This document shows, one piece after another, positions 3,801-51,430 of a stretch of DNA of 64,000 nt. The notes below the pieces were generated by a model that was not told where the DNA came from, did no database searches, and saw nothing but the letters and a program-made list of their open reading frames with translations. Origin of the DNA: an archaeon (GTDB lineage: Archaea > Nanobdellota > Nanobdellia > Pacearchaeales > GW2011-AR1). Numbering within the stretch: the stretch's first letter is position 1; each line of letters begins with the position of its first letter. Position numbers and translations under genes: made by a program. The DNA lies in NCBI GenBank assembly GCA_018651605.1, contig JABIDS010000010.1, positions 32,053-96,052 of the forward strand, given 5' to 3'.

Positions 3801-6612
3801 CCCCTTGAGTTTTAATCGCATCGGTATTCTCCTCATAATTTTTGCCCATTAAAACCATCCTTCCCAATTCTTTATCTCCCATGTTCTTCAAAACCTCACT
3901 TCCAGAATCCTTGACATTTGACAAAGTCATTATATTTCTTCTTTGTTCATGAGTCAAACTATCCCAACTACAAATACCATTTTCACCATTAAATGAAACA
4001 CTTTTTCCACCCTCTCCAGGTAAATCAACACTTCCACCCTTACCTTTGCACCATTCATCAAATTTCACCTTAAATTTATCTTCGACTTTTTTAGTATCAA
4101 CCCTTCCTTCAAAATCCAAAAAATCACTCCTCTCAATTCCAACCTCATTCTGAATTCCTTTCAAAATATCATTAGTTTTCTTTATTTCATCAGAATAAGT
4201 TTTAACATCACTTTCAATCTCATTTTTCTTATCCAACAAACATTGTTGCAAACTAACATATTCTTTATCATTAACTAACTCCTCACATTTTTCATTCCAA
4301 CCACCAAGATTCGTCATCAAATCATTTCTCGCAATAGATTCTCCATTTAATCCAGAAAATAAACTCTTAGTAGTCAACAATGCAGACGTAGCAAAACACG
4401 CAGTCTTCATAACCTTAACCACATTACCCAATTGCGCATTAATTTTATTTAATTTCTCAATACTCTCGATTAAATCCTCTGCCATTTCCTTAGCTTTTTC
4501 AGGACTTAATTGAATAGCTCTTTTTTCAATTCCAATCCTAAATGAAAATTTCGCATTAGTTCTAGCCCCATAATCAACAGGCTGAACACTTACCTTAACC
4601 TGCTTTTTAATATTTATTCCAATCAACCTAATTCTAACCCCATTCAAATCAATTTGATTATTATCCAAACTTAATCTATGACTCTTAACATCCTTATTTC
4701 TTCGAGATTTAATAATTACATAATTTGTATCAACTTTTTCAAGTTCAATAGTTTGCTTCACATCAGCATTACTTCCAACACTTTCAACATCACCCAACCC
4801 TAAAGTTTTCTCACTTGCATCAATCATCAAAACAGCGCCAGCATCACTCTTACTAGGCCTTTTAAAATCCAATAAATCAATAAAATGTTGCTCTTCATTT
4901 ATTGAAACAACAGCCTTAGAATTACTATTATCATACTTAACCAACAAATCTTTATTCCTTTTTGCATCTCTCGCAGCAGATGAATCAGGATAATCTCTAA
5001 TAATCTGATCATAAAAATTCAAAGCCCTAGCATTCATCCCAAATTGCCGAGACAACTGTGCAGCCTCAAATAAACCATTAGCAGCATAAGCATCTTTCTC
5101 AGGCCCCTTTTCATTAGGATAAATATCAACCAAATCTCCATATTTTTGAATAGCCAAATCATAATAGTCTTTTGCTAAAAGCTCATCTGCACCAATATCT
5201 TCAACAGCCCAATTTTTATCAACCATTGCAGAAACAAAATCCAATTTAATCCCCGAATAACTATCTCCTTCTTTCAAAACCGCAACTTTTACATTATCCT
5301 CTAAAACTGCAATTTGTTCTTTAGTTAACTTTTTCTTATACCCATTTTTAATTCCTCTCTCAATCTCACTTTTCAATTCCCCAATATTCTTAGAATTTTC
5401 TTTAATTATTTCATCGACAATAGAATTAACTCCTTTCTCAACAAAATCCTTTTCAGTTCTAGAAAATTCATCCCCCACCAAAACAACATACTTTTTATTA
5501 CTCTTATCTTGCCCAAGATAAGCCAAATAAATATTCTTATTAGCATCCACTCTTTCATTAACTATAACTCTTTCTTTTATCTCATTCCCTAAACTAAATT
5601 CTGCTGCACCAGGATTTAAATCTAAAACAAATTTCCCCCCAGCCCCTGAACAACTAACACTTAACTTGCCTCCAACTCCATTTGTATCCAAACCACTAAC
5701 ACTACACTTCCCATTCAAAAACTTATCTCCTTTTGAAACCCAAGTTTGTTTATCATCAATTTGAATCAAAGCACTATCAACAGGAGCACGAATATCTTCT
5801 ACCTTAATTTTCATCCCTGCAGAACAATAATATCCATCCAAATGAATCTCCCCAGAAGTCTCACCATTCTTTAAAGTAACAGAAGTTTGCCGACTATCTG
5901 CATCCCTATAAATTCCAATTGTAGCTCCATCTGAATCAATAGATTCTGCCCGAACATACGCCTTACCATTCCAAAAACCATTCTCCAGATATTCTCTCAA
6001 CCATTCCTTATCATTCATCTCATCAATATAAAAATCACTATTCCCAATACCAAAACTCCCTTCACTATCATAATCAATAGTCGCAGTAATATTCCCCTCA
6101 ACAAAATCCGGCATATCTCTTTCAAGCGCTTGCCTTGAAACTACAATAACCAAATAACCCAAATCATTATTAACAAGAGAATCCAAAACATTAGGTTGAT
6201 TATATCTATCTGTTCTTCTTACAGCAGCCTTAGAAGGAAAATAACTAACACCTGAAACACCTTTAGGATACTCTCCCTTAAAATGTAAACTCCTAATTCT
6301 TGAAACATCAATTAAAGGATTTATCTGAATAGATCGAACCTTACAAAAAACAGGAACATTTTGCTCTTCCAATAAATCAGACCGAACAACTGCAGGACTA
6401 CAACTTCCAGGAATTATCTGCATAATTATATCCCCCCCAGATTGGCACATAGATTTATCAAAAGTCCCTCCACCAACATATCCAGAACCATAACTAGGGT
6501 TAGTAAATTGAGGATTAACAGATGAACCATAAACATTATAATCATTAACACTAACAACAAAACCAACTTGCATAAACAAAACTATTACAAATAAAAAACA
6601 AATCTTTCTCAT
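898..6612 (-). CDS. Giant (1904 aa) secreted cysteine-rich surface protein with acidic V/E/G C-terminal repeat
   Basis: The 5.7-kb ORF is uninterrupted. It has a signal-like N-terminus (MRKICFLFVIVLFMQVGFVVSV), a TPR-like helical stretch (YYDLAIQKYGDL...FYDQIIRDYPDSSAARDA), a dense Cys cluster in the C-terminal half and an acidic degenerate repeat near the end. Its start overlaps the upstream stop by 4 nt. Confidence 0.75.
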   Translation of the reverse strand: MRKICFLFVIVLFMQVGFVVSVNDYNVYGSSVNPQFTNPSYGSGYVGGGTFDKSMCQSGGDIIMQIIPGSCSPAVVRSDLLEEQNVPVFCKVRSIQINPLIDVSRIRSLHFKGEYPKGVSGVSYFPSKAAVRRTDRYNQPNVLDSLVNNDLGYLVIVVSRQALERDMPDFVEGNITATIDYDSEGSFGIGNSDFYIDEMNDKEWLREYLENGFWNGKAYVRAESIDSDGATIGIYRDADSRQTSVTLKNGETSGEIHLDGYYCSAGMKIKVEDIRAPVDSALIQIDDKQTWVSKGDKFLNGKCSVSGLDTNGVGGKLSVSCSGAGGKFVLDLNPGAAEFSLGNEIKERVIVNERVDANKNIYLAYLGQDKSNKKYVVLVGDEFSRTEKDFVEKGVNSIVDEIIKENSKNIGELKSEIERGIKNGYKKKLTKEQIAVLEDNVKVAVLKEGDSYSGIKLDFVSAMVDKNWAVEDIGADELLAKDYYDLAIQKYGDLVDIYPNEKGPEKDAYAANGLFEAAQLSRQFGMNARALNFYDQIIRDYPDSSAARDAKRNKDLLVKYDNSNSKAVVSINEEQHFIDLLDFKRPSKSDAGAVLMIDASEKTLGLGDVESVGSNADVKQTIELEKVDTNYVIIKSRRNKDVKSHRLSLDNNQIDLNGVRIRLIGINIKKQVKVSVQPVDYGARTNAKFSFRIGIEKRAIQLSPEKAKEMAEDLIESIEKLNKINAQLGNVVKVMKTACFATSALLTTKSLFSGLNGESIARNDLMTNLGGWNEKCEELVNDKEYVSLQQCLLDKKNEIESDVKTYSDEIKKTNDILKGIQNEVGIERSDFLDFEGRVDTKKVEDKFKVKFDEWCKGKGGSVDLPGEGGKSVSFNGENGICSWDSLTHEQRRNIMTLSNVKDSGSEVLKNMGDKELGRMVLMGKNYEENTDAIKTQGANENYKNLGIKATNAFGDSVTYGDIKTITKGDKSHDIYKNFETGNRVVRIYIPSSKVFGKEIFTANETVSGKEVIVEVNRVERAGGEYHPEGDIYIVSTGEKLEGDAEKSVRDYMSLAGMDRLKQDNDIGYNNRIQGVDRLKVKYFDREPYKGLPAEVPFDVENGWYVEMTYVLSGFGKPYDESGRVVNYYICNVGENGLIEFKKSGDDVCRYYNERTGAEINFPGMSIGDSKKLIDKAQRAIAEAAKQYGRERITINGKTFDSGTSFGGESGRCTDFMSISDCNLLFNVCDPVVCPASRCDLGGKYRVDNVMQTGIIGSLVLCLPNYKEGIAVPICLTGVHAGLEGYISILNSTVDCLNESVNTGRNIGVCDEIKSIYVCEFFWKQAAPFLEVLVPRLLAGAYGQVRGGGEYSVIQSAWQNTQNAIGYFKNEYAVNSVRAFNARSTTEIGSDVCKSFISQTVPGSAGFFEALIEPDSPVQYHAWFSESQLTSATVPALSHYKVYFHIFAGKDIGAQYNVYLKDLPTSAGSVHTTGYYNVDRGYVARGGQVDKTRDFSAPTGFKQLCVSVNGREECGFGKVSTSYAINRINDEYVQGQIDANIISEKNCVAGTPSALSLINPNIQAGVEDFLNSELYSRGIIRVCATDNPGKQVTNGEYREESSLSSRWKEVGYCDDPSVKCWLDSDSVKDVVRDKGIENEILENVELKDIFGDVDYLVGSESASLANKIESSVNGLIIKKGESEASVEEKIKSIVDDLELLTELGVNNVYRARGLYWFGKLYNKVASNLLDVEIRNDGWIEDTSEDLNDGEVVSDSGGDLDVGGDEVVEGEVVDGGEVGDEVVEGEEVSGEEEVVEGGEEVIETKIVWSDEMLREGVRITLYNPAWLFFGSRTYYKYNFNDGLGRWITKDREFIDAGLGYVGGLKELVKITKDGGKVIINNKEILKKNFDSDEEMLEEIFEALKKN

Positions 6613-8483
6613 CCAAACGCCACCCCCACATTTCCATCTTTAACTCTCTGATAATTACCTTGCAAATCTTCAACCTTTGAAGGAATACCAAAATCATCAA
6701 CACTAAGAATCAATTTATTAGAACCACTCAACTCACTTTCACTAACATAATAATTATTAGTTCCCCCTCCAGAAATACCGCTCTCAATATTTTGCTCAGG
6801 AACTTCCATATTAAAACATTTTTCTTCCGTAAAACCAAACACTCCTGCAACACCACTTTTAGGAACATCAACACATTTCAAACTACTATCTCCTTCTAGC
6901 TTCATATTAACATCACTATAAACATAAACTTGAACTTCATACTGCCCACCTGACAATTTAATCTTTTTTTGTTCAGGATATGCAAGAGTAACTTTACTCT
7001 CTCCATCAAATGTAACAATAGCCCGGCTATTTGAACCAATATTCATTTCTAAATCCAACTCATATTCTTTATCCAATACAATATCTACAACACCACCCTC
7101 AACACTATCCATTAAATATTTTTCAGTTTTGTAACCCTCTGCACTAGCAATTAAATAACCATTAACACATTGAGGAAACTTTTCAGTCAAGATAGCATTA
7201 TCACCAACAATCTTGCTCTCACCAATCTCACAACTACTATCAAAACACTTAAACTTAATTCTTGCCTCCACAGGCTCCAAATTACTATTATAAGTATAAA
7301 CATCAAATTCACTATTCTTATGTTCACATAGTTCTGGAATAACGTCAGGCAATCCTTCAACATCTAATGCTTCTCTTGGTTTATTTTTATCAATCATAAC
7401 AACAACTGGAAACTGAAACATTTCATTTCCTGAATACAACTGAACCAAAACTGGAAAAGCAAAATCATAAACAAAATGATAAGGAGCATAACAAAAGCCC
7501 ATCATTTCCAAACCTTCTTGATTTCCAATAGGATCTGCTCGGATAATTCCTCCATCAGAAGGCCAAACTTCCATTTTCATAGGCCAATTAGGTGAATACA
7601 TGAAATTAACATTAGTATCAACATCCTCTCCAATATCTCTAACAAAATATTTATTTTCAGAAGATTTCAAATCATAATAATCTCCTTTAATTTTAATTGC
7701 AGGAACATTTGCTTCCAAAGCATCAATCATTCCCCTTCTCACTCCATCAACCTCCCAAATTTTTGGAACACAACTAATTTCAGTTCCATCAACAGGAGCA
7801 TACAATCTCAAAATATCCACACCATAATTCTCCAAAAACATTTCATCTTTATTATTCAAATAAATCTTCTTAGCTAAATCATAAAACTTACCAATGCTGG
7901 ATTGAACATTATCTGAATGACTCTCCCCAGTCCAACTACTTTCACCAAAACTAATCTTTATCCTTTGCTTAACTTCAAAATTAATTTTATCTTTATCTAT
8001 CTCAATATCCACTCCAACTTTTTCATTATCTAATTCAACCTCAAACCCATTTTTTTCAAAATAACTAAAATCACAAAGAACAACACCGCCTTCAACAAAA
8101 TCTTCTAATTGACTCTCCATTTTACCTTCACTAGGAATTTGCTCTTTTTTAATTCCGTTTCCAGAAACATAATACCAATAAGGAATTCCCAAACCCATAA
8201 AACCTAAATGAGATGAAAAAGGCATATACTCACTTCCTGGAGAAAAATCAGGACTTTCAATATAACCTCCTTGTTCCCCCAAAATCCTAGCACCATTAGA
8301 AACTTCATTTTCAATACAACTTAAATAATAATTATAAACAGGCTCTAATTCTGCAGGAACATTAGCAAAAGAAAAACTAGCCCTAAAAATAAAAAATAAA
8401 ACAATCCCAGTAACAATAACTAATGCAAGAATAATAAAAACACTCACTTGCCCCTTAGAATCTTTCATTTTCAAATCACGCAT
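6609..8483 (-). CDS. Large extracellular protein with class III (type IV pilin-like) N-terminal signal
   Basis: The ORF-track start at 8513 is a TTG, so I prefer the ATG at 8483. The N-terminus MRDLKMKDSKGQ/VSVFIILALVIVTGIVLFFIF is a basic leader, then KG, then a roughly 20-aa hydrophobic helix. The rest of the protein is soluble and beta-rich in appearance. Confidence 0.7.
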   Translation of the reverse strand: MRDLKMKDSKGQVSVFIILALVIVTGIVLFFIFRASFSFANVPAELEPVYNYYLSCIENEVSNGARILGEQGGYIESPDFSPGSEYMPFSSHLGFMGLGIPYWYYVSGNGIKKEQIPSEGKMESQLEDFVEGGVVLCDFSYFEKNGFEVELDNEKVGVDIEIDKDKINFEVKQRIKISFGESSWTGESHSDNVQSSIGKFYDLAKKIYLNNKDEMFLENYGVDILRLYAPVDGTEISCVPKIWEVDGVRRGMIDALEANVPAIKIKGDYYDLKSSENKYFVRDIGEDVDTNVNFMYSPNWPMKMEVWPSDGGIIRADPIGNQEGLEMMGFCYAPYHFVYDFAFPVLVQLYSGNEMFQFPVVVMIDKNKPREALDVEGLPDVIPELCEHKNSEFDVYTYNSNLEPVEARIKFKCFDSSCEIGESKIVGDNAILTEKFPQCVNGYLIASAEGYKTEKYLMDSVEGGVVDIVLDKEYELDLEMNIGSNSRAIVTFDGESKVTLAYPEQKKIKLSGGQYEVQVYVYSDVNMKLEGDSSLKCVDVPKSGVAGVFGFTEEKCFNMEVPEQNIESGISGGGTNNYYVSESELSGSNKLILSVDDFGIPSKVEDLQGNYQRVKDGNVGVAFG

Positions 8484-8610
8484 TTTTCTTACCCTTTTTA
8501 ACCTTATTTTCAATTAATTTAATAATTTCAGTATTAATATCTTTTTCATTACTATCTTTAAACTTTTCCCATAATTCAGAATCTTCTATCAAAAGCAAAT
8601 ATTTTTTCAT
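8476..8610 (-). CDS. Small ribbon-helix-helix (CopG/Arc-like) protein, 44 aa
   Basis: This ORF is below the ORF-track cutoff. The ATG is at 8610, and the TGA at 8476-8478 overlaps the downstream ATG (ATGCGTGA). The translation is MKKYLLLIEDSELWEKFKDSNEKDINTEIIKLIENKVKKGKKNA, which fits a beta-strand plus two helices. It is a paralog of the ORF at 32825-32965. Confidence 0.45.
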   Translation of the reverse strand: MKKYLLLIEDSELWEKFKDSNEKDINTEIIKLIENKVKKGKKNA

Positions 8611-8787
8611 TTTAGTCTTTTCAAAATGTTAGCATTTTACACCCCAATTCCCCTTTTCTTTTTCATTTTACACCCAATCTCCCTTTTTCTTTACATTACT
8701 AAAAACATACACTATTTAAATCTTTCTTATTAACTTAGTAACTTACTTAGTAACTAAGAACAACATAAGAAACCTAAAAAGAATAAA

Positions 8788-8858
8788 TGGTCCTACCAAG
8801 AATCGAACTTGAGATTTATCCACGTCAAGGATACGTTTTGCCACTAAACTATAGGACC
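8788..8858 (-). tRNA. tRNA-Val (anticodon GAC)
   Basis: The reverse complement folds as a cloverleaf: acceptor GGTCCTA/TAGGACC, D stem GTTT/AAAC, anticodon stem TATCC/GGATA with loop TTGACGT, and T arm TCAAG-TTCGATT-CTTGG. CCA is not encoded. Confidence 0.85.
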
Positions 8859-8898
8859 CTATTATAGGATTAAAATCTTAATTTTTAAAACCTTTGTT

Positions 8899-9180
8899 TT
8901 AAATCCTTCTCTTTCCAATTTTCCCACCTTTAACCTGCCCCCAATTCCCTCTAACAAACTCAACATCCAATTCTCTAACATCAATCTTAGCCAACCTACA
9001 TAAATCTTCAAAAAATTCCGCATCCATCAATCTCCGCTCAACATAATAATTTTTCAAACTAGAATATTTAACATCAAAACCAAACTGTAAAATTCCTCTC
9101 AATGAAATACAACCCAATCTAGCCACAACTAAATCCAAAAATTTTCTCTGCATTCCTTTCTTAAACAACACTCTATCCAT
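8899..9180 (-). CDS. Hypothetical small protein (possible HTH)
   Basis: The ORF-track start at 9273 would overlap the divergent L44e gene, so I chose the internal ATG at 9180 (MDRVLFKKGMQRKF...). There is no diagnostic motif. Confidence 0.45.
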   Translation of the reverse strand: MDRVLFKKGMQRKFLDLVVARLGCISLRGILQFGFDVKYSSLKNYYVERRLMDAEFFEDLCRLAKIDVRELDVEFVRGNWGQVKGGKIGKRRI

Positions 9181-9248
9181 AAATAACTCCGACACCATCA
9201 ACATCCAAAACTTTAAAAACCCTTTCATCAACCAATTATTATACGAAA

Positions 9249-9563
9249 ATGAAAGTACCAAAAAAAACACCAAGATTTTGCCCCAAATGCAAAAAAAGAA
9301 CAGAACAAAAAATAGACTTAGTTAGTACAGGTGGTAAAAGAGGAACTTTAAAACGAGGTTCAATCGCACGTTCAAAATTAAGAAACGCTTCACCAGGTAA
9401 AGGAAACCAAGGAAAAAGAAGTAGAAAAGCAATCAAAAACTGGAAAAGAAAAACAAAAACAACTACAAGAAAAGTTTTAATCTATACATGTCAAGAATGC
9501 AAAAAATCAAAACATGCTAAAAAATCCAGAAGAGTATCTAAATTAATTGTAGGAGATAAATAA
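9249..9563 (+). CDS. rpl44e: 50S ribosomal protein L44e (eL42)
   Basis: The protein is very basic. It carries the zinc-ribbon pairs CPKCKK...CQECKK and the N-terminus MKVPKKTPRFCPKCKKRTEQKI typical of L44e. Confidence 0.85.
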   Translation: MKVPKKTPRFCPKCKKRTEQKIDLVSTGGKRGTLKRGSIARSKLRNASPGKGNQGKRSRKAIKNWKRKTKTTTRKVLIYTCQECKKSKHAKKSRRVSKLIVGDK

Positions 9564-9645
9564 GATGATATTAAAATATAGGAGAACCATACAAACTTCG
9601 AAGAAGCTTTCTTTAGGGAAGATATATAAACTAAAAGGAGGATGC

Positions 9646-9671
9646 ATCCAAGGAACCTTGGTTCCTTGGAT
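9646..9671 (+). promoter_or_regulatory. GC-rich nested palindrome/hairpin in the S3Ae leader
   Basis: ATCCAAGGAACC-TT-GGTTCCTTGGAT has perfect 12-nt arms. It is preceded by the overlapping palindrome GGATGCATCC and lies 15 nt upstream of the S3Ae ATG. Confidence 0.35.
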
Positions 9672-9686
9672 TAGGTGTCTTAGATA

Positions 9687-10646
9687 ATGGCAAAAAAACC
9701 AAAAACAACAAAAGTAATATCAAGAAGAAAAAAATTCATAAAAGTAGAAGTTCCCTTAGCAAAATCAACAATTGAACTAATTGGTTCATCACCTGAAGAA
9801 ATTCAGGGAAGAACAATAAAACTAGACTTAACAAGACAATTAAAAGGAAAATCAGTAGAAGCAACCGTTAAGATAAAAACAGAAAACGAAAAACCGATAG
9901 CAAAACCAATCAAACTAAAGCTTATGCCTTATTTCATAAGAAGAATGATAAGAAAAAGAATAAGCTATGTTGAAGATTCTTTTGAAACACCTTCACAAGA
10001 AAGCATGATAAAAATAAAACCTTTCCTAATCACAAGAAAAAGAGTATCAAGAGTTGTAAGAAAAACTCTCAGAAATAAATGTAAAAACTGGATAGAAGAT
10101 TACATTGCAGAAAGAAAAGACGACGAAATTTTCAACGAAGTTTTATCAAATAGAATGCAGAAACCATTATCTCTAATGTTAAAGAAAACATATCCTCTTT
10201 CGCTATGTGAGATAAGAGTTTTAGAAGTAAAAAGAACCTTAGAAAAAGATGAAATACCAAAAATAAAACCAAAACCAAAAAAAGTAGAACAAAAAGAAGA
10301 AATAGAACAAGGTTTAGATCAATTAGCAGAAATAGAAGAAGAAAAAAAGAAAGCAGAAGAAGAAATAAAACAAGCTCAAGAAAAAGCAGTTAAAAAGGAA
10401 GAACAAGAAGAGAAAGATAAAATAACAGAAGTAAAAGATTCTGCAAAATTACTTACTTCAGAATCAGCGGCGCTTTCAGAATCCAAAAAGGATTCTGAAC
10501 ACAAATCAGATTCTGAACCAGCTACTAAAGAAATAAAAGAAGCTAAAGAAAAAACTAAAGAAAAAGAAACTACCACTAAAGAAAAACCTAAAAAAGAAAA
10601 AACACCTGCAGGTGTACCTTCTGAAGGCAAGGAGAAAAAAGAATGA
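9687..10646 (+). CDS. rps3ae: 30S ribosomal protein S3Ae (eS1) with ~130-aa K/E-rich C-terminal extension
   Basis: The N-terminal roughly 185 aa (KKFIKVEVPLAKSTIELIG...IKLKLMPYFIRRMIRKR...CEIRVLEV) match the S3Ae family pattern. A long lysine/glutamate tail follows and ends in TPAGVPSEGKEKKE. Confidence 0.85.
   Translation: MAKKPKTTKVISRRKKFIKVEVPLAKSTIELIGSSPEEIQGRTIKLDLTRQLKGKSVEATVKIKTENEKPIAKPIKLKLMPYFIRRMIRKRISYVEDSFETPSQESMIKIKPFLITRKRVSRVVRKTLRNKCKNWIEDYIAERKDDEIFNEVLSNRMQKPLSLMLKKTYPLSLCEIRVLEVKRTLEKDEIPKIKPKPKKVEQKEEIEQGLDQLAEIEEEKKKAEEEIKQAQEKAVKKEEQEEKDKITEVKDSAKLLTSESAALSESKKDSEHKSDSEPATKEIKEAKEKTKEKETTTKEKPKKEKTPAGVPSEGKEKKE
10602..10631 (+). repeat. In-frame 30-nt module copy 1 (TPAGVPSEGK) in S3Ae
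   Basis: The sequence is ACACCTGCAGGTGTACCTTCTGAAGGCAAG. The first 14 nt are a perfect palindrome. Confidence 0.8.
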
Positions 10647-14209: not shown

Positions 14210-15139
14210 ATGAAAAACAAAACACTAGATTCTATTGGTTTTATTGGACTTGGAAAAATGGGTTACAATATGGCCAAATTAATTAAAAAAAAATCAGAGA
14301 TTAACGTATATGGATTTGATAAAGATGAAAAAGTTAGAAAATCAATAAAAGAGTTTGGAGCTGTTTCTGTAAATTCCTTAGATGAAATGGTTGAACAGTT
14401 AGGAGAAGATCAATTAAATTTTTGGATGATGCTCCCATCAGAACATACCAGTAAAACATTTAATCTACTGGTAAGGAAAATAAAAAATCAAGGAGATCAG
14501 CAATTCATTATAGATGGAAGCAATAGCAATTTTAAAAAAACAATTAAAAGACACAAAAAAGCAAGAAAACACGGGATTGGAATGTTAGATGTTGGTGTTT
14601 CTGGGGGAATTCTGGCAAGAGAGACAGGTTATCCAATGATGATTGGAGGAGATAAAGATATTTATGAATATGCAAAACCCTTATTTTCTTCACTTGCAAA
14701 CAAAGAAAGCTTTGGAAGGGTAGGAGAAGCTGGGACAGGCCATTATTTAAAGATGGTACATAATTGGATTGAATATGGGATTATGGAAGCTCTTGGCGAA
14801 GGCGTAAACCTATTATTTAATGGACATTATAAAAATAGGCTGGACATCGTTGAAGGATTTAGAATTTTTACAAATAACACTATAATTGATGGAACCCTTA
14901 CTAATGTTACCTATAATGCACTATTAAAAGACCCAAATTTAGAATCAGTTAAACCCTATGTGGAAGAGAACGGTGAAGGTTATTGGGCATCACTCGAAGC
15001 ATTAGAAAATGAAGTTCCCTCAGTTGTCAATTCTTATGCAGTAAGTTCTAGAAGAATTTCTCGTGGAAAGGACGACCCTAAACATAAAATTATCGCTTTA
15101 ATGAGAAAAGGTTTTGGAGGTCATGATACTAAAAAATGA
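14210..15139 (+). CDS. 6-phosphogluconate dehydrogenase-like NAD(P) oxidoreductase (short Gnd/YqeC type)
   Basis: It has the Rossmann motif IGFIGLGKMGYNM and the motif GHYLKMVHNWIEYGIMEALGEG, which resembles the 6PGDH signature GHxVKMVHNGIEYG. Confidence 0.65.
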   Translation: MKNKTLDSIGFIGLGKMGYNMAKLIKKKSEINVYGFDKDEKVRKSIKEFGAVSVNSLDEMVEQLGEDQLNFWMMLPSEHTSKTFNLLVRKIKNQGDQQFIIDGSNSNFKKTIKRHKKARKHGIGMLDVGVSGGILARETGYPMMIGGDKDIYEYAKPLFSSLANKESFGRVGEAGTGHYLKMVHNWIEYGIMEALGEGVNLLFNGHYKNRLDIVEGFRIFTNNTIIDGTLTNVTYNALLKDPNLESVKPYVEENGEGYWASLEALENEVPSVVNSYAVSSRRISRGKDDPKHKIIALMRKGFGGHDTKK

Positions 15140-17991: not shown

Positions 17992-19617
17992 GTGAAAATG
18001 GCAATCTACTCTCATTCAAAATTATCTTCATTTGAACAATGCCCTCTTAAATTTAAATTCAGATACATAGAAAAATTAAAACCAGACATTGAAAACACAA
18101 TAGAAGGATTCTTAGGAACAAAGGTTCACGACACCTTAGAATGGATTTACAACGAAATATTAAAGAATCAACATAAAGAATTTGAATTAGATGAAATAAT
18201 AAAATATTATGCAATTTCATGGAACAATGATTACACAGAAGACATAAAAATAGTAAAAAAAGAATTCACAACAGAACATTATTTCAACAAAGGAATAAAA
18301 TTCTTAATTGATTATTTCACTACTCATAAACCCTTCAAAGACAATACAATAGAAACAGAAAAAAGAATATTCTTAACATTAAATGATGGAAACAAAATAA
18401 TAGGATACATAGATAGACTCACACACAATAGGGAAACAAACATACTAGAAATTCATGATTACAAAACCTCAAACTCAATGAAATCTCAAACAGAATTAGA
18501 CAAAGACCGACAACTAGCACTTTATTCCTTGGCAATAAAACAATTATTTCCAAACGCAACAGATGTTCATCTGGTTTGGCATTTCTTAAATTTCAACAAA
18601 AAAGTAACTTCAAAAAGAACTTACGAACAATTAGAACAACTAAAACAAGACATAATACAATTAATTAAAAAAATAGAATCAACAACAGAATTTCCTCCTT
18701 GTAAGAGCGCATTATGTGGATGGTGCGAATACCAAAGTTATTGCCCACTAATACAACAAGAACAAATAATGCAACAAGAGAATAAACAAAAAGAATTTCA
18801 AAAAACATTAGATCTCTCTTCAAAAATAAATTTAAAAAATCCTAAAATCCTAGTAGCAAGTCCAACTTATGATGGCATGGAATATTGTCACAACGAATTC
18901 TTTAATCAAATAAAAAATTTAGATTATAAAAATTACGACCTATTAATAATAGACAATTCCAGAAACAATAAATATTTCAAGAAATTAAAAAAAGAAAATA
19001 TTTTAACAATAAAAGACAACACTCAAGAAGATAAGAATTCTTTGAGATTAGTAAGTAGCAGAAATAAAATCCTAAAATATGCTCAAGAAAATAGATATGA
19101 TTACATCCTAATGCTAGATTCAGATGTAATTCCTCCAAAAAATATAATAGAAGGATTATTAGAATGCAAAAAAGACATCGTTAGTGGGATATATTTTAAT
19201 CAGTTTAATGTTTCAGGAAAACCAGAAATTCATCCTGTTGCATATAAGTGTTTAACAGAGGAAGAATTTGAAGAAATGAAAGAAAAAGTAAACTTCCCTC
19301 CCAATGTTAAATCCCATTTAGATATAAAATATCATTTGACAAAAGAAGATACAGACAGCAAGAAGCTCCTAGAAGTCTTTATTCCTTCTGCAGGTTGCAT
19401 GTTAATTTCAAGGAAAGTTTTTGAAGAAGTAAGATACGGCCTAGTAGACACTACCAATGCAGACAATATACAAACAAGCGACGATATATATTTTATGTTA
19501 AGGGCAAAGGAATTAGGATTTAAAATTTACTGCCATACAGGATTAAAATGCGAACATTTAGTAGAAGGAAAATTCAGAAAAGATAAAAATAAATTAGTTC
19601 ATCCATTTTACGATTAA
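17992..19617 (+). CDS. Fusion protein: Cas4/RecB-like PD-(D/E)XK nuclease (N) + family-2 glycosyltransferase (C)
   Basis: The N-terminal half has YSHSKLSSFEQCPLKFKFRYI, GYIDRL...ILEIHDYKTS (D..ExK), RQLALYSLA and the CGWCEYQSYCP Cys cluster. The C-terminal half has ILVASPTYDG...LLIIDNS...MLDSDVIPP...SDDIYF, a GT-A/DxD pattern. It is one continuous ORF. Confidence 0.7.
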   Translation: MKMAIYSHSKLSSFEQCPLKFKFRYIEKLKPDIENTIEGFLGTKVHDTLEWIYNEILKNQHKEFELDEIIKYYAISWNNDYTEDIKIVKKEFTTEHYFNKGIKFLIDYFTTHKPFKDNTIETEKRIFLTLNDGNKIIGYIDRLTHNRETNILEIHDYKTSNSMKSQTELDKDRQLALYSLAIKQLFPNATDVHLVWHFLNFNKKVTSKRTYEQLEQLKQDIIQLIKKIESTTEFPPCKSALCGWCEYQSYCPLIQQEQIMQQENKQKEFQKTLDLSSKINLKNPKILVASPTYDGMEYCHNEFFNQIKNLDYKNYDLLIIDNSRNNKYFKKLKKENILTIKDNTQEDKNSLRLVSSRNKILKYAQENRYDYILMLDSDVIPPKNIIEGLLECKKDIVSGIYFNQFNVSGKPEIHPVAYKCLTEEEFEEMKEKVNFPPNVKSHLDIKYHLTKEDTDSKKLLEVFIPSAGCMLISRKVFEEVRYGLVDTTNADNIQTSDDIYFMLRAKELGFKIYCHTGLKCEHLVEGKFRKDKNKLVHPFYD

Positions 19618-22636: not shown

Positions 22637-23040
22637 TATAATTTCTCCACCAACTCCTTTAATGTAATATATTTTAATTTATTAGGTGCACTAATTTTCA
22701 TCATTTTCTTATCTTTAAATTCTTCAGGAATACCATCATGACATTTAACCCTCAAAAAAGCTTGCTTTCCAATTCCTCTTCTATGGTCTGGCAACATTCC
22801 TCGAATTCCTCGCTTTAACAACATATATGCAACTCTTCCATGCTTAGGCCCTTTTTGCGAATGCCCACCTTTAGCTTTTAAAACTCTATATTTCTCAATA
22901 GTATCTTTTTTATTTCCAGTAATAATAACTTTCTCAGAATTCACAATAACAATCTCCCCACCTTCCAAAGCTTTCTTAGCAACAAAGCTACAAAGTCTTC
23001 CAAAAACTGCCCCACTTCCATCAATAATTATCTCACTCAT
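22636..23040 (-). CDS. rpl13: 50S ribosomal protein L13 (uL13)
   Basis: IIDGSGAVFGRLCSFVAKKAL...KGGHSQKGPKH...LKRGIRGMLP matches the L13 pattern, and the gene is syntenic with S9. Confidence 0.9.
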   Translation of the reverse strand: MSEIIIDGSGAVFGRLCSFVAKKALEGGEIVIVNSEKVIITGNKKDTIEKYRVLKAKGGHSQKGPKHGRVAYMLLKRGIRGMLPDHRRGIGKQAFLRVKCHDGIPEEFKDKKMMKISAPNKLKYITLKELVEKL

Positions 23041-23420
23041 ATTACTTCAACCCCTTCCAATTTATTATTACTTTCAATCTCATCCTTAATACTCTTAACC
23101 TCACATCCAGCCTTTTTCAACTTTTCTCTTGCTTGTTCTGAAAATCCAAGAGCACTAACCTTAATCTTTCTATTAACTTCACCTTGCCCCAAAACCTTTC
23201 CAACAACCATAATCTTATCAGTCTTGCCCTCAGAGGGTACACCTGCAGGTGTGGCATCATTCAATCCATCCAAATTAATCTTAGTATACTGACTAGCCGG
23301 TGCACTCAATCTTTTACCTAAATCCAAAAGCCCATGTTTCTTAGCCAACAAAACAGTCTCAACTATTTCAGGATTCCGTTTCTTCTTTAATCTTTTATCT
23401 ATTTGTGTTTTTGATATCAT
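23037..23420 (-). CDS. rpl18e: 50S ribosomal protein L18e (eL18) carrying a ~10-aa insertion
   Basis: KTQIDKRLKKKRNPEIVETVLLAKK...INLDGL[NDATPAGVPSEGKTDK]IMVVGKVLGQGEV matches L18e. The position between RpoD and L13 fits the conserved archaeal order. Confidence 0.85.
   Translation of the reverse strand: MISKTQIDKRLKKKRNPEIVETVLLAKKHGLLDLGKRLSAPASQYTKINLDGLNDATPAGVPSEGKTDKIMVVGKVLGQGEVNRKIKVSALGFSEQAREKLKKAGCEVKSIKDEIESNNKLEGVEVI
23223..23252 (-). repeat. In-frame 30-nt module copy 2 (TPAGVPSEGK) in L18e
   Basis: The coding-strand sequence is ACACCTGCAGGTGTACCCTCTGAGGGCAAG. It is 28/30 identical to copy 1. Confidence 0.8.
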
Positions 23421-23552
23421 ATTGTAAATTTAACAGAAAAAATATTTTCCTGCTAACGCGAATTGTCCATCTCTGAATCACTCGCAGGTTATGATTTTGA
23501 AAGATAATTAAGGTTTTTAAATCTTCGCTTTTATGGTTTGAAAAGAGAATGA

Positions 23553-23580
23553 GTTAAAAATTTCATTAGAAATTTTTAAC
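23553..23580. promoter_or_regulatory. Perfect 12-bp-arm palindrome in divergent intergenic region
   Basis: GTTAAAAATTTC-ATTA-GAAATTTTTAAC lies between the L18e start (23420, minus strand) and the ORF start at 23640 (plus strand). Confidence 0.3.
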
Positions 23581-23639
23581 GGTTTGTATGTAAACCAGAG
23601 AATAGAAAATAATAAATAATGACAATGTGATACCTTAAA

Positions 23640-24200
23640 ATGGATTTTGATGAGATAGATGAAGATGAGCTTTTGGATTTAGGAATCTATGATCCTAAGA
23701 TAAGTCTAGATGAAAAAGCAAAACTTTTATATAATCATGGAGCAAGTTATGAAGAAATTTGCAGTGTTCTTTATTCTTCAACAGACCATAATCTTTCAGT
23801 AATTGGGGTTGCAAAAAGTTTGCATAACTTTGGAGCAGATTGTTCTCAGATTCCTGAGGCATTTACAAGATTCTGTCTTACACCTTATTCAGGTCTGTGT
23901 GAAGGAGAATATTCTTATAGTTATAAAGATCTTACAAAAGCATTAAAGACACTTGATTACAGTCCTAGAGAAATAATGACTAGCTTAACAAGAAGTTTCC
24001 CAGTAGATTATAATTTAGATTCATATTATTCAGAATTAGATCTTAATCATTTAGAAGAGATTTTATTCTCACTAGGAGTTACAGATTTTAATGAACTAGT
24101 AACAGAATTACAATGTATTGGTTTTAGAAAACAAGATATTAAAATTCATTTAAGAGAAATTGGTCATTATCCTGGAAGGATTTTTGCAGAACCAATTTAG
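23640..24200 (+). CDS. Hypothetical acidic helical-repeat protein
   Basis: The 186-aa ORF has an acidic N-terminus (MDFDEIDEDELLDLG) and four loosely repeated units of about 35 aa (..L...G.S..EI...L..). It lies antisense-oriented inside the r-protein/RNAP cluster. Confidence 0.45.
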   Translation: MDFDEIDEDELLDLGIYDPKISLDEKAKLLYNHGASYEEICSVLYSSTDHNLSVIGVAKSLHNFGADCSQIPEAFTRFCLTPYSGLCEGEYSYSYKDLTKALKTLDYSPREIMTSLTRSFPVDYNLDSYYSELDLNHLEEILFSLGVTDFNELVTELQCIGFRKQDIKIHLREIGHYPGRIFAEPI

Positions 24201-24207
24201 TTAAAAA

Positions 24208-24291
24208 TGCAGGAAACAGGATTCGAACCCATGTAGGCACTAAGCCAATGCGACCTTAACGCATCCCGTTTGACCACTCCGGCATTCCTGC
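24208..24291 (-). tRNA. tRNA-Leu, class II; anticodon reads AAG by canonical numbering
   Basis: The fold has acceptor GCAGGAA/TTCCTGC plus discriminator A, a 3-bp D stem, anticodon stem ATGCG/CGCAT with loop TTAAGGT, a long variable arm and T loop TTCGAAT. It aligns position-for-position with the tRNA-Leu(CAA) at 50805. Confidence 0.75.
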
Positions 24292-24336
24292 ATAAAAACA
24301 ACCAAGATTCAACTTATAAAAACTTATCCCCAAGAA

Positions 24337-24996
24337 CTACTTAACAACCTTACCCAACTCTTTCAAATTCCCATCCAAAGCTTCAATAGCTTTCAAAAAA
24401 ATATCCTTACTATCTAACTGCCCCCAACTCTCAATCTCAAAAATCAATTCATCATTCCCTTTTGCTTTCTTAACCTTTTCAACAATCTCTTCACTAATCC
24501 CTTTCAAATCTTCATCATCATAATTAACTTTTCCTTCAGCATCAACATAAACAACATTCAAAACATCTTCATCAAGATTGTGCTTATAGTAAACCAAACC
24601 AGGAGAATACTTAATATGATCAATCCCCTTACCAAGTTTAGCATCTGCAACAATTTCAAATTCCTGCCCATCAGCTAAAATAACAATCGGCAATTTCAAA
24701 TCAGTTCCAATAGACGGACTCATATCAGTCGCATAAACAGTATTAGGCCCTTTAACTTTCAACTTAAATTTCAATTCCTTACTTGCCTTATCCATCTTAA
24801 TAGGAATCAAACCAATTCTATGAGCAATTATTTCATCATACAATGCAGAATCATTTTTATAAATCTCAACTTCATCAATAGCCAAAACCGGAATCTCCAA
24901 AACACTCCTACGAATAGCATTAGCCAAATAAACAGGCATATCGGTAACAAAACTCAACTTCAGCTTTTCTTTATTATAATTTTCTGTTTTTATCAT
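24337..24996 (-). CDS. rpoD: DNA-directed RNA polymerase subunit D (Rpo3), cysteine-free
   Basis: VYLANAIRRSVLEIPVLAIDEVEIYKNDSALYDEIIAHRIGLIPI is the RpoD/alpha-like motif, and the gene is syntenic after S11. The sequence contains no Cys, so it has no Fe-S domain. Confidence 0.85.
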   Translation of the reverse strand: MIKTENYNKEKLKLSFVTDMPVYLANAIRRSVLEIPVLAIDEVEIYKNDSALYDEIIAHRIGLIPIKMDKASKELKFKLKVKGPNTVYATDMSPSIGTDLKLPIVILADGQEFEIVADAKLGKGIDHIKYSPGLVYYKHNLDEDVLNVVYVDAEGKVNYDDEDLKGISEEIVEKVKKAKGNDELIFEIESWGQLDSKDIFLKAIEALDGNLKELGKVVK

Positions 24997-25032
24997 TTTA
25001 ATTGTTATTTTTTTAGGTTTTTAAGGTTATCT

Positions 25033-25584
25033 CTAAACCCTCCGCCCCCTTCTACCACCCTTCTTCTTCGGCCCACCACGAGCAATCCTTGTTGTATCCA
25101 TTATTGACAAAATCTTAAAACCTGCACGAGTCAAAGATTTAATAGCAGCATGAGCTCCAGGCCCAGGATTATTCTGCCCAGTCTTAGCTCTTATCTTAAC
25201 ATAAAATCCAGTAATCCCATTATCCCTAGCCTCTTCAGCAACTCTCTGCGCAATAAACATCGCAATAGTTGGATTCGCCTTCAATCTATCCTGCTTAGTC
25301 GACTGCCCACCAGAAAACTTCGCCAAACTCTTCCCAGACATATCAGTCAAATTCATAACAGTATTATTAAAAGTCGTATAAATATTCAAAACACCAATCC
25401 TATCATCTTTTCTCTTGCCCCCAGAGGGTACACCTGTAGGTGTAGGAGCTTTTCTCTCTTCTTTAACTTCTTCCTTTTTCTCTTCAACAACTTCATTCTT
25501 CGTATCTTCTTTGGTTTCAACTACTTCAGGTTTTTCTTTAGTATCTTTTACTTCTTCAACAACTTTCTTTTCTTTTTCTACCAT
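25033..25584 (-). CDS. rps11: 30S ribosomal protein S11 (uS11) with ~55-aa K/E-rich N-terminal extension
   Basis: The core is GVLNIYTTFNNTVMNLTD...GPGAHAAIKSLTRAGFKI...D.T.IARGG..KKGGRRGRRV. It is preceded by a lysine/glutamate-rich tail ending in TPTGVPSGGK. Confidence 0.9.
   Translation of the reverse strand: MVEKEKKVVEEVKDTKEKPEVVETKEDTKNEVVEEKKEEVKEERKAPTPTGVPSGGKRKDDRIGVLNIYTTFNNTVMNLTDMSGKSLAKFSGGQSTKQDRLKANPTIAMFIAQRVAEEARDNGITGFYVKIRAKTGQNNPGPGAHAAIKSLTRAGFKILSIMDTTRIARGGPKKKGGRRGRRV
25414..25443 (-). repeat. In-frame 30-nt module copy 3 (TPTGVPSGGK) in S11
   Basis: The coding-strand sequence is ACACCTACAGGTGTACCCTCTGGGGGCAAG. The arms ACACCT/AGGTGT are retained. Confidence 0.75.
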
Positions 25585-26207
25585 TATTCTTTATCCTCAC
25601 TTTCATTTACTTCTTTGCCCTCATCAGGTACGCCTTCAGGTGCAACTTCTTCAGCCTTCTCTACTTTTTTCAAATCTTCAACCACTTCACCTTCAATTCC
25701 TTCCTCCAAAACCTCTTTCTTAATTTTCTCAATCTTAGACTTCTTATTATCAGGAATTTTCATAACTAAATTCAACTTAACCTCTCCTTCTTCAACCATT
25801 CCAACTTGATAAGACGGAACATTAACAATCTGGTTACCAATCGCAACATGTTTATGAGTAATCAATTGTCTAGCTTGTTTAGGAGTATTAGCAAATTTCT
25901 TAGCAACAACAATTGTCTGCAATCTTCTCTTTAACCAATCTTCTTTATCCAAAGCCAAAGCATCAGCAATACTCTCAACAGGAAAACCCTTCTTCTGATA
26001 TCTCTCAATAAAACCACTCTTCTCTTCATCACTTGCAGTAATCAATTTCTTCGCAAGATTCCTAACTCTCTTAATAGCAGCATCAGCTTTCCAAATCTCT
26101 CTCTTAGTTTTCAAACCATATTTCTCCCTAAGAACATTCTCTTCATCTATTCTTGCCTTATCAAAAGGTTTCTGCGGTCGCGAATATTTTTTCTGTTGTT
26201 TTTTCAT
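25584..26207 (-). CDS. rps4: 30S ribosomal protein S4 (uS4) with acidic C-terminal extension
   Basis: KKYSRPQKPFDKARIDEENVLREKYGLKTKREIWKA matches S4, and the S4 RNA-binding domain follows. The tail is ...EEVAPEGVPDEGKEVNESEDKE. Confidence 0.9.
   Translation of the reverse strand: MKKQQKKYSRPQKPFDKARIDEENVLREKYGLKTKREIWKADAAIKRVRNLAKKLITASDEEKSGFIERYQKKGFPVESIADALALDKEDWLKRRLQTIVVAKKFANTPKQARQLITHKHVAIGNQIVNVPSYQVGMVEEGEVKLNLVMKIPDNKKSKIEKIKKEVLEEGIEGEVVEDLKKVEKAEEVAPEGVPDEGKEVNESEDKE
25614..25643 (-). repeat. In-frame 30-nt module copy 4 (APEGVPDEGK) in S4
   Basis: The coding-strand sequence is GCACCTGAAGGCGTACCTGATGAGGGCAAA. This is the most diverged copy. Confidence 0.65.
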
Positions 26208-26224
26208 TTTGAATTCTTAAGAAG

Positions 26225-26704
26225 TTATTTCTTCTTCTTAACCCCCACTGCTTTCTTCTTACCCTTAGCTCTAAAGTGTGCTTTAGTCCTCTGTCCTCTA
26301 GCAGGATGCCCAAACGCATGTCTAAGTCCCCTATAAGAACGAATTTTCTTCAAACGTCTAATATCAAACTCTTTCTTCATATCAAGCTTAGTTCCAACCA
26401 AATGCGAATCCTCACCAGTTTCAAAATCTTTTCTCCGATTAACTAAATGTGAAGGCAAAGAAGGATTATCTAAAAAATCAGTTATCTTTTTAATTTCCTC
26501 ATCACTTAAATCTGCAATCTTTCTATTTACATCAAAATTTAACAATTTACAAACAGCATTTGAAATAGTCCAAGAAATTCCTTTAATATAAGTCAAACCA
26601 GTCAAAAGATTTTTATTCCCAGGAATATCTGTTTGCAGAATTCTAATTATTGAAAAGTATTCTTTTTTCTTATCTGGTCTTTCTTGTTTTGTTTCTTGTT
26701 CCAT
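26225..26704 (-). CDS. rps13: 30S ribosomal protein S13 (uS13)
   Basis: RILQTDIPGNK...LTYIKGI...YRGLRHAFGHPARGQRTKAHFR is the S13 pattern. It is the first gene of the S13-S4-S11-RpoD block. Confidence 0.9.
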   Translation of the reverse strand: MEQETKQERPDKKKEYFSIIRILQTDIPGNKNLLTGLTYIKGISWTISNAVCKLLNFDVNRKIADLSDEEIKKITDFLDNPSLPSHLVNRRKDFETGEDSHLVGTKLDMKKEFDIRRLKKIRSYRGLRHAFGHPARGQRTKAHFRAKGKKKAVGVKKKK

Positions 26705-50346: not shown

Positions 50347-50544
50347 TCAGAATTTTTTAAATTTATTAATCAACTCTAAATTATCAACTTGCCCTAAGAA
50401 CATAGCCCTGCAACAATACCTATCAACACCTAAACTATCAAGAACCTTTCCACCTTCTTCACCTTTCTCAGTTCTTTCCTTAAATTCTTCCCACAGGTGC
50501 CCAATTGGCTTCCCACAACTTATACATCTTATTGGTATTATCAT
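50347..50544 (-). CDS. rpoN: DNA-directed RNA polymerase subunit N (Rpo10)
   Basis: I use the ATG at 50544. MIIPIRCISCGKPIGHLWEEF...LGVDRYCCRAMFL is the RpoN zinc-bundle signature. Confidence 0.85.
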   Translation of the reverse strand: MIIPIRCISCGKPIGHLWEEFKERTEKGEEGGKVLDSLGVDRYCCRAMFLGQVDNLELINKFKKF

Positions 50545-50584
50545 TTTTCTATTTTTATCCTTTTCTCCTAAAAGAAAATAGGTA

Positions 50585-50698
<114 letters not shown>

Positions 50699-50804: not shown

Positions 50805-50888
50805 GCAGGGGTTCCTGAGTGGTCAAAAGGGCAGGACTCAAGATCCTGTGGTTTAGTACCTTCGCAAGTTCGAATCTTGTCCCCTGCA
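50805..50888 (+). tRNA. tRNA-Leu (anticodon CAA)
   Basis: The fold has acceptor GCAGGGG/CCCCTGC plus A, anticodon stem CAGGA/TCCTG with loop CTCAAGA, a long variable arm and T loop TTCGAAT. Confidence 0.9.
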
Positions 50889-51241: not shown

Positions 51242-51316
51242 GCGCTCGTAGCTCAGCTGGATTAGAGCGATTCCCTCCTAAGGAATAGGTCGCAGGTTCA
51301 AGTCCTGCCGAGCGCG
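51242..51316 (+). tRNA. tRNA-Arg (anticodon CCU)
   Basis: The fold has acceptor GCGCTCG/CGAGCGC plus G, D arm GCTC-AGCTGGATTA-GAGC, anticodon stem ATTCC/GGAAT with loop CTCCTAA, and T arm GCAGG-TTCAAGT-CCTGC. Confidence 0.9.
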
Positions 51317-51358: not shown

Positions 51359-51430
51359 GCGCTGGTGGTCTAGTGGTTATGATCTTTGGCTTCCAACCAA
51401 ATGACCCGGGTTCAATTCCCGGCCGGCGCA
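51359..51430 (+). tRNA. tRNA-Gly (anticodon UCC)
   Basis: The fold has acceptor GCGCTGG/CCGGCGC plus A, anticodon stem TTTGG/CCAAA with loop CTTCCAA, and T arm CCGGG-TTCAATT-CCCGG. Confidence 0.9.

Follow-up and report, generated by a model that had tools for sequence, protein, structure and literature searches.

A 27-nt in-frame double-hairpin cassette, putatively mobile, in ribosomal-protein genes of a Pacearchaeales archaeon

The 64,000-nt stretch of archaeal DNA analysed here (contig JABIDS010000010.1, positions 32,053 to 96,052; hereafter, the window) contains nine ribosomal-protein genes, those of S3Ae, L18e, L13, S9, S11, S4, S13, L21e and, by a weak match, L44e. Four of them carry a short in-frame sequence, called the cassette below. 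The S3Ae gene (9687..10646, plus strand; Pfam PF01015, Ribosomal_S3Ae) holds copy 1 (ACACCTGCAGGTGTACCTTCTGAAGGC, TPAGVPSEG) at 10602..10628, in its C-terminal Lys/Glu-rich (K/E) tail, and the adjoining Lys codon (10629–10631) was present before the insertion. The other three copies are on the minus strand. Copy 2 (ACACCTGCAGGTGTACCCTCTGAGGGC, TPAGVPSEG; 23226..23252, Lys codon 23223–23225) lies in an internal loop, residues 57–65, of L18e (23037..23420; PF00828, Ribosomal_L27A, with eL18 chains as matches in the PDB). Copy 3 (ACACCTACAGGTGTACCCTCTGGGGGC, TPTGVPSGG; 25417..25443, Lys codon 25414–25416) is located at the boundary between the N-terminal K/E tail and the core of S11 (25033..25584; PF00411, Ribosomal_S11). 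Copy 4, a divergent variant (GCACCTGAAGGCGTACCTGATGAGGGC, APEGVPDEG; 25617..25643, Lys codon 25614–25616) that scores 40.9 bits with a covariance model, is in the C-terminal tail of S4 (25584..26207), a gene recognised by alignment with orthologues, which carry PF01479. A preliminary description of this DNA had reported four in-frame 30-mers, and their coordinates, strands and reading frames are all correct. The repeated stretch is 30 nt long, as stated there, but the inserted unit is 27 nt (nine codons), and its final Lys codon was already in place.

A search for the 30-mer with up to three mismatches gave three matches in the window and none in 100 dinucleotide-preserving shuffles. The peptide pattern P.G[VIL]P..GK gave four six-frame matches in the 64 kb, each inside the S3Ae, L18e, S11 or S4 open reading frame (ORF). 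No fifth copy was found by the covariance model on both strands of the window with filters off, just antisense echoes of the palindromes. The GC content of the cassette is 63%, while that of the window is 31.6%. The codon atypicality noted earlier holds as well: GGC accounts for 5% of Gly codons, AAG for 25% of Lys, CCC for 10% of Pro and GTA for 19% of Val. The ACACCT/AGGTGT arms are found in three of the four copies, again as described. The layout of the cassette is that of two adjacent hairpins, ACACC-TGCA-GGTGT, A, CCCT-CTG-AGGG, C. Helix 1 pairs positions 1–5 with 10–14, helix 2 pairs 16–19 with 23–26, and A15 and C27 are unpaired.

Comparison with relatives revealed filled and empty alleles of the same sites. 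In S11, the window reads AAA GCT CCT, ACACCTACAGGTGTACCCTCTGGGGGC, AAG AGA AAA GAT GAT. The closest relative obtained, L101 (S4 core 90.7% identical in amino acids and 89% in nucleotides, S11 core 98% in amino acids), reads AAA GCT CCT directly followed by AAG AGA AGG GAT GAT, and L100 reads GCC CCT followed by AAA AAG AGA. The S3Ae tail of the window reads GAA AAA, the 27 nt, AAG GAG AAA AAA GAA TGA, whereas L104 (P0243, 85% amino acid identity) reads GAA ATA and then the same AAG GAG AAA AAA GAA TGA. The L18e site is GAT GCC, the 27 nt, AAG ACT GAT AAG in the window and GAA GTT, AAA GGA GAT AAA in the empty allele of L099. At all three sites, filled and empty alleles differ by exactly 27 nt, with an ambiguity of at most 1 nt. 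The empty alleles already hold Lys at the site; therefore, the Lys codon predates the cassette. The L18e insert is missing in the 118-aa orthologues P0002 and P0003 (P0002 is 91% identical over the aligned 118 residues) and in all 118 other L18e homologues listed. L101 has neither the S11 nor the S4 copy, and the S4-tail motif is also missing in L005, L097 and L100; the S4 tails of these four are too divergent to place insertion boundaries. At the level of sequence, the alleles identify the S11, S3Ae and L18e cassettes as clean and recent insertions.

The preliminary description had left room for the copies being limited to one assembly. They are not: contigs from three further ENA assemblies contain the L18e allele with the insert, and an L18e variant of 99% identity likewise carries it. 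Since the allele recurs in other assemblies, it is not an assembly artefact.

The relatives searched comprised 80 loci (1.08 Mb in all) that surround S11 in GTDB species representatives bearing the names Nanoarchaeota, Woesearchaeota or Pacearchaeota. With a permissive peptide pattern, just two further copies were detected there, both of 30 nt and both in ribosomal proteins: APRGVPLAGG-K in the S11 N-tail of L011 and APKGVPSGEG-K in an L13-like ORF of L071. Two copies came from a metagenome scan with a degenerate DNA pattern, namely M-APEGVPQEG-K, which occupies the N-terminus of L5 from codon 2 (L096) and is identical in eight of nine residues to the S4 copy of the window, and TPSGVPQGG-K in phosphoenolpyruvate (PEP) synthase, PpsA (L093). 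The scan gave five matches in all, and the others were two high-GC chance matches and an uncertain one on a phage baseplate contig (L092). Homologue searches with S11 and S3Ae added ASKDVPSEG twice, in S11 at exactly the site that is filled in the window (P0122/L097) and in the S3Ae tail at a place different from that of the window copy (P0245/L102–L103). In total, there are ten copies, in S3Ae, L18e, S11, S4, L13, L5 and PpsA, which stem from no fewer than eight or nine distinct events. When eight of the copies were used to build a covariance model, it picked up L071 (E = 3e-5) and L011 (E = 3e-4), neither of which had gone into it, and found nothing beyond the known copies, and no intergenic or tandem copy, in the window or in 1.14 Mb of relatives’ loci.

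Several cassette-like sequences were seen outside these ten. The S11 N-tail of L005 (10121–10180) has a cassette-like start, ACA CCT AAG GAT GTA CCT, and end, GGC AAA, with about 33 nt between them; it scores 18.3 bits and may be a decayed or expanded cassette. The 30-mer of L092 (4499–4528, minus strand; DTPDGVPMGG-K, 27.3 bits) lies within a 410-aa ORF directly upstream of baseplate-wedge genes on a phage contig of 34.7% GC. Its helix 1 is perfect and its helix 2 is partial, and it could be a chance match or a viral copy. On viral contigs, a gapped cassette pattern matched just a family of unrelated phage proteins (SGAPLGVPATQANG) and, once, non-coding sequence by chance. L102 has a structured stretch between genes (14350–14480, minus strand; −37.7 kcal/mol, z = −2.35) with a 27-nt segment, GCACCGAAGGTGTACTCTTCGAGCAAA, that shows the two-hairpin layout of the cassette; neither an Rfam family nor a tRNA matches the stretch, and the window lacks a homologue of it. 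The weak covariance match within it, at 14399–14425 (18.9 bits), was taken as chance, with no homologue elsewhere.

Within one variant, the copies are identical at 25–26 of 27 nt. The variant GCA TCW AAG GAT GTA CCC TCT GAG GGC, hereafter variant A, occurs in S11 of L097 and in S3Ae of L102/L103 with 26 of 27 nt identical, while the L097 and L102 genomes are 80% identical in nucleotides over the S4 core and 86% over the S11 core. At that divergence, the estimated probability of one difference or none in 27 sites is about 0.02–0.07. The S11 site is filled by one variant in the window and by a different one in the more distant L097, and it is empty in L101 and L100. P0245 and P0124 are encoded on the same contig, which is 192,558 bp long and syntenic with the window; therefore, L101 and L102 represent a single sister genome. 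The genome of the window has four copies, compared with one per sister genome. The cassette appears to have spread by copying into new sites, because its presence at identical sites is optional, one site holds different variants, one variant occurs in different genes of different genomes, and one genome has a burst of four copies. The earlier claim that the copies were not inherited from a common protein ancestor is correct.

The pairing of the two hairpins is preserved across the variants. Standard pairs fill 95.8% of the cells in eight 27-nt copies, in comparison with 26–51% in registers slid by 1–3 nt. Both-sided (compensatory) changes occur at three pairs, and the covariation score is 0.286 compared with 0.197 in shuffles, a value attained by 3 of 500 shuffles, in a small sample and for a structure derived from the same sequences on which the pairing was tested. 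The L18e and S3Ae copies differ at just C18 to T and G24 to A, the two partners of one pair. In variant A, C4 to T and G11 to A preserve the pair, although the peptide changes from Pro to Ser and from Gly to Asp. The two 30-nt copies place their additional codon in loop 2.

These hairpins might belong to a cis-acting RNA (or DNA) tag in highly expressed, mostly ribosomal-protein mRNAs, read by a trans-acting factor or nuclease and used, for example, in co-regulation, processing or stabilisation of operon transcripts, with the spread by copying being secondary. The covariation, the G·U pairs present on the sense strand, the conservation of nucleotides, down to the unpaired A15 and C27 and the AA that comes next, the strictly sense orientation and the enrichment in ribosomal-protein genes would all suit such a tag. 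It would also suit the position of two window copies 12–60 nt upstream of the next start codon (S3Ae before ndk, S4 before S11) and of the L096 copy from codon 2 of L5. However, the cassette is missing in the orthologues of the nearest relatives and in about 115 of 120 homologues per family, and a required regulator site would be expected to be more stable than this rapid turnover. Its place relative to start and stop codons is inconsistent, being internal in L18e, PpsA and L13. Folding of 50-nt RNA contexts is no better than that of shuffles (z from −1.8 to +0.6), and the minimum-energy folds vary from copy to copy. Rfam gave no match at the cassettes at the gathering threshold, nor at E ≤ 5 in 23000–26300, and the cassette has no similarity to the six tRNAs and the 5S rRNA of the window; 16S and 23S rRNA genes are missing from all of the loci examined. 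A hairpin of Shine–Dalgarno and anti-Shine–Dalgarno type (CACCU/AGGUG) was considered and dropped, as helix 1 of variant A lacks such letters, with CAUC/GAUG in their place, yet stays paired. We therefore regard an RNA tag as unlikely, if still a serious candidate.

The codons of the cassette were then compared with its peptide. The final Gly codon is GGC and the Val codon is GTA in ten of ten copies, against usages of 5–11% and 13–27%, respectively, and this invariance extends to L011 and L071, which were found via the peptide pattern alone. Among the aligned copies, variable sites by codon position 1, 2 and 3 number 4/9, 4/9 and 6/9, and loop positions vary at 6/7 while stem positions vary at 8/18. 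A15 and C27, both third codon positions, are invariant. Codon agreement between L097 and the window in S11 was discarded as independent support, the background same-codon fraction being 0.65–0.71.

One of the readings first offered was a docking or modification peptide, here a short linear motif, [TA]PxGVPxxGK, exposed on tails at the surface of the ribosome, where a lineage-specific partner would bind or modify it; the DNA similarity would then be a trace of the recent copying that delivered the motif. The constant reading frame, the invariance of V-P and G-K across the peptides, the location always in tails or loops with charged, disordered flanks and the ribosomal-protein enrichment are in its favour. 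Nevertheless, the invariant residues coincide with invariant rare codons, and in variant A, P2 and G4 become S and D at precisely those places where the changes restore base pairing. Variation at the first two codon positions is as frequent as it would be without constraint, even sister species differ in the presence of the cassette, a metabolic enzyme hosts one of the copies, and the S11 copy of L005 may be decayed or expanded. A resemblance to a Walker A motif (GVPSEGKT) was set aside, being limited to a single copy. A motif under selection would keep its peptide while synonymous sites drift; here, GGC and GTA are fixed, and the P to S and G to D changes occur. With these non-conservative changes, the even variation over codon positions and the absence of the motif from almost all orthologues, a docking or modification peptide is disfavoured and is the least supported reading; we consider it improbable. 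As far as the aligned copies can tell, conservation acts on the nucleotides rather than on the peptide.

In the 64 kb and about 1.2 Mb of other DNA, every occurrence of the core pattern GTACCY-N3(N3)-GRR-GGCAAR is on the sense strand of a gene and in the same phase, and each of the ten copies reads in the sense direction in phase 0. Orientation tracks gene direction (plus at 10.6 kb, minus at 23–25 kb), not one DNA strand. Each copy is followed by AAR; positions +1 and +2 are always AA, and 85% of the 12 downstream nucleotides are purines. A pyrimidine directly precedes eight of the ten copies, and on the bottom strand the cassette always comes after YYTT. In the sense direction, the cassette encodes TPAGVPSEG in phase 0, runs into a stop codon in phase 1 and encodes KHLQVYPLRA in phase 2. 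In the antisense direction, phase 0 yields the Cys-rich ALRGYTCRC, phase 1 runs into a stop in the context used for translation, and phase 2 yields PSEGTPAGV. This last peptide is no less benign than the one observed, yet none of the copies has it; therefore, peptide selection alone does not explain the orientation.

Mobility and function might also be combined, in a sense-strand-specific, phase-locked mobile RNA or DNA module that doubles as a structural tag coupling ribosomal-protein mRNAs to one trans-acting factor. Such a module would move between highly expressed genes, possibly via an RNA or single-strand intermediate, and it would amount to an archaeal equivalent of a regulon signal for ribosomal-protein mRNAs, one that is spread through transposition. 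In the sister genome, reverse transcriptases adjoin ribosomal-protein loci. We hold this combination to be rather doubtful.

The host sites share a protein context. Three window copies are within or border K/E-rich tails. In the AlphaFold2 model of L18e (mean predicted local distance difference test score, pLDDT, 77.8), residues 57–65 are the only segment with pLDDT < 50, and the insert is modelled as a coil between the helix 50–55 and the strand 69–77. It aligns to a seven-residue gap relative to solved eL18 chains, and the PEP synthase insert is likewise an alignment gap relative to the solved enzyme 8a8e. The cassette is present in four of nine ribosomal-protein genes and in none of 46 other window genes (Fisher p = 3.7e-4). 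The tails of S3Ae, S11 and S4 contain 194 of the 286 K/E/D-rich residues of the window (68%), and much of the bias towards ribosomal proteins could come from the tolerance of K/E tails for the insert or from a preference for the purine-rich DNA that encodes such tails. The restriction to ribosomal proteins suggested at first thus stands as an enrichment in the window but not as exclusivity, as one copy is in PEP synthase.

It is also conceivable that the cassette is never translated, either as a bulge–helix–bulge mini-intron or through translational bypassing, as in mitochondrial byp elements and T4 gene 60. Nanoarchaeota are known for unusual RNA splicing. The 27-nt size, the GC-rich hairpin and the optional presence of the cassette resemble byp elements, which are reported to derive from GC clusters (PMC4464245). 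However, every copy is a multiple of three, free of stops and in a single phase, all of which would be needless if it were removed. Take-off and landing codons mismatch (upstream GCC, CCT, AAA and GTT; last codon GGC), and upon inspection, the upstream exons lack a 4-nt complement to the 3′ end of the cassette. Both forms were rejected, as the upstream exons offer no partner for the 4-bp exon–intron helix that separates the two 3-nt bulges of such introns and the cassette has no internal stop or frame break, and we judge a cassette that escapes translation to be very improbable.

The three readings in the preliminary description, a peptide motif, an in-frame palindromic mobile insertion and a co-regulating nucleic acid element, are partly supported. 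The second fits best, given the 27-nt presence and absence, the rare codons, the shared variant and the compensatory pairs. On balance, we are inclined, at somewhat better than even confidence, to view the cassette as a miniature mobile double-hairpin element, selfish or neutral, that is tolerated in disordered tails and loops. The family would comprise cassettes of 27 nt, rarely 30 nt, with 63% GC, in DPANN genomes of about 30–35% GC (Nanoarchaeota, Woesearchaeota- or Pacearchaeota-like). A nucleic acid unit of two adjacent short hairpins would be copied, as sequence, into coding DNA. Each insertion would be in the sense direction and in phase 0, immediately ahead of a Lys codon (AAR) with which a purine-rich tract begins, and would duplicate no target sequence. 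Translation would yield a flexible peptide of nine residues, [TA][PS]x[GD]VPx[EG]G, which should be harmless in disordered K/E tails and surface loops, here mostly those of ribosomal proteins. Candidate movers are a hairpin-recognising enzyme that acts on single strands, short-tract ectopic conversion or an RNA intermediate. Ectopic conversion between purine-rich, 3-nt-periodic tail-coding sequences would preserve both frame and orientation.

Several points weigh against a miniature mobile element. Neither a transposase nor a reverse transcriptase or nuclease able to move it was found among the window ORFs scanned, the element has no terminal inverted repeats, no target-site duplication accompanies the S11, S3Ae and L18e insertions, and 27 nt is below the size of any autonomous or non-autonomous prokaryotic transposable unit that we know to be described. 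The same DNA that was scanned with the core pattern contains zero intergenic and zero antisense copies, which is unusual for a selfish element. Nine of the ten copies are in ribosomal-protein genes, though most of the examined loci were chosen around S11. At the L18e insert, the flanking codons, too, are unlike those of relatives, a pattern that is as compatible with a conversion tract as with an insertion. As for the hairpins, the covariation is based on about seven independent sequences, and the folding of the RNA contexts, as given above, does not exceed that of shuffles. The codons of T/A-P-x-G-V and P-S-E-G are partly self-complementary in their first two positions. Codon usage puts the probability that a sequence encoding TPAGV forms a perfect 14-nt palindrome at an estimated 0.13 or so.

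A diversity-generating retroelement is located in the sister genome (L102:6185–9448), directly upstream of its L44e-like and S3Ae genes. It has an 88-nt repeat pair with 84% identity, and the differences are at adenines of the template copy (7155–7242); the variable region (6764–6851) is located at the 3′ end of a 266-aa ORF. The reverse transcriptase (RVT_1, 7265–8389) is followed by a LAGLIDADG_3 protein (8393–9448, minus strand). The equivalent part of the window (about 8513–9687) lacks all of this. The retroelement was considered as the driver of the cassette and set aside, the hairpin that flanks its variable region being unlike the cassette. A second RVT_1 gene is found on the sister 192-kb contig about 7 kb upstream of S13-S4-S11.

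The sister genome (L101:3676–3993; 192-kb contig, JGI 3300072015) also has extra small genes inside the conserved S13-S4-S11-RpoD-L18e-L13-S9 cluster, including a 105-aa ORF between S13 and S4 and regulators of the HTH_5/TrmB type between S11 and RpoD, all of which are missing in the window. Elsewhere in the window, two adjacent ORFs of 1904 and 634 aa (898–8513, minus strand) have no Pfam match; their sister versions are 1914 and 621 aa long. A 541-aa ORF (17992–19617) combines a PD-(D/E)XK/Cas4-like nuclease domain (residues 7–252) with a family-2 glycosyltransferase (302–480), and its counterpart in relatives is 267–269 aa long and consists of the nuclease domain alone. The 5S rRNA gene (50584–50698, minus strand) adjoins the RpoN gene (50347–50592), and tRNA genes are at 50805–50888, 51242–51316 and 51359–51430. 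Several mechanically listed ORFs overlap these RNA genes.

A literature search found no description of this cassette. If confirmed, it would be the smallest in-frame mobile element described and, as far as the literature searched shows, the first element in Archaea of the type of Rickettsia palindromic elements (RPEs) or GC clusters. Identical short peptides could then arise at non-homologous sites of essential conserved proteins without peptide selection, which calls for caution in motif discovery and in the use of ribosomal-protein insertions as DPANN phylogenetic markers. The strict rule of orientation, phase and target points to a mechanism of insertion or conversion, yet to be described, that operates in the streamlined genomes of symbionts, and the presence or absence of the cassette provides a fine-scale strain marker.

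With respect to known systems, the cassette resembles a short linear motif in being a conserved stretch of nine to ten residues in disordered charged tails of functionally related proteins. It differs in that its synonymous sites are not free, its pairing outlasts the peptide, and orthologues usually lack it. Unlike miniature inverted-repeat transposable elements, it has a reverse complement that is not similar end to end, with two separate internal palindromes instead of terminal inverted repeats, and there is no target-site duplication. As for a parent transposase, the 64 kb available from this genome showed no such domain in the ORFs scanned. Repetitive extragenic palindromes (REPs) with their REP-associated tyrosine transposases (RAYTs) and the hairpin-ended IS200/IS605 elements insert in a strand-specific, target-adjacent manner without target duplication. 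The cassette shares with them the size class of 20–40 nt, the imperfect palindromes and this mode of insertion, which would fit a single-strand, hairpin-recognising enzyme. REPs are extragenic and have a GTAG or CGTC tag (PMC3733652), whereas the cassettes are all intragenic, with the conserved tetranucleotide GTAC in the middle of the unit rather than a 5′ tag, and their orientation follows gene direction rather than one DNA strand. The window showed neither a Y1 transposase gene nor a RAYT gene.

Closer parallels are found in mitochondria and Rickettsia. Mobile GC clusters of yeast mitochondrial DNA include optional ones in the ribosomal-protein gene rps3/VAR1 (PMC4464245), GC42 is a mitochondrial GC cluster with constrained stems (PMC4478555), and double-hairpin elements of Allomyces mitochondrial DNA were reported by Paquin, Laforest and Lang (2000), as cited in PMC4478555 and PMC2800124. 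Like these, the cassette is a short GC-rich hairpin element of an AT-rich compact genome, with stems more constrained than loops, presence and absence among close relatives and a short preferred target, and it can occupy a ribosomal-protein gene and lengthen its product. The mitochondrial elements are 30–80 bp long, mostly intergenic, often in tandem arrays and organellar, none of which applies to the cassette. Their reported target is AG and their footprints are duplication-like, while the cassette has neither duplication nor array. RPEs, as summarised in PMC10969869 (from Ogata et al. 2000, 2002), are bacterial elements of about 100–150 bp in ten families, which also occur between genes. The cassette shares with them the dispersal of nucleotide-conserved palindromes, in frame, in unrelated genes of a reduced genome and their being read through as an extra peptide at sites compatible with the host protein fold. 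It is outside any described RPE family, being archaeal, 27 nt long (30 nt in two copies) and, in the present sample, restricted to coding sequence, always sense, in phase 0 and beside AAR. The cassette works like RPE and GC-cluster elements but belongs to none of them.

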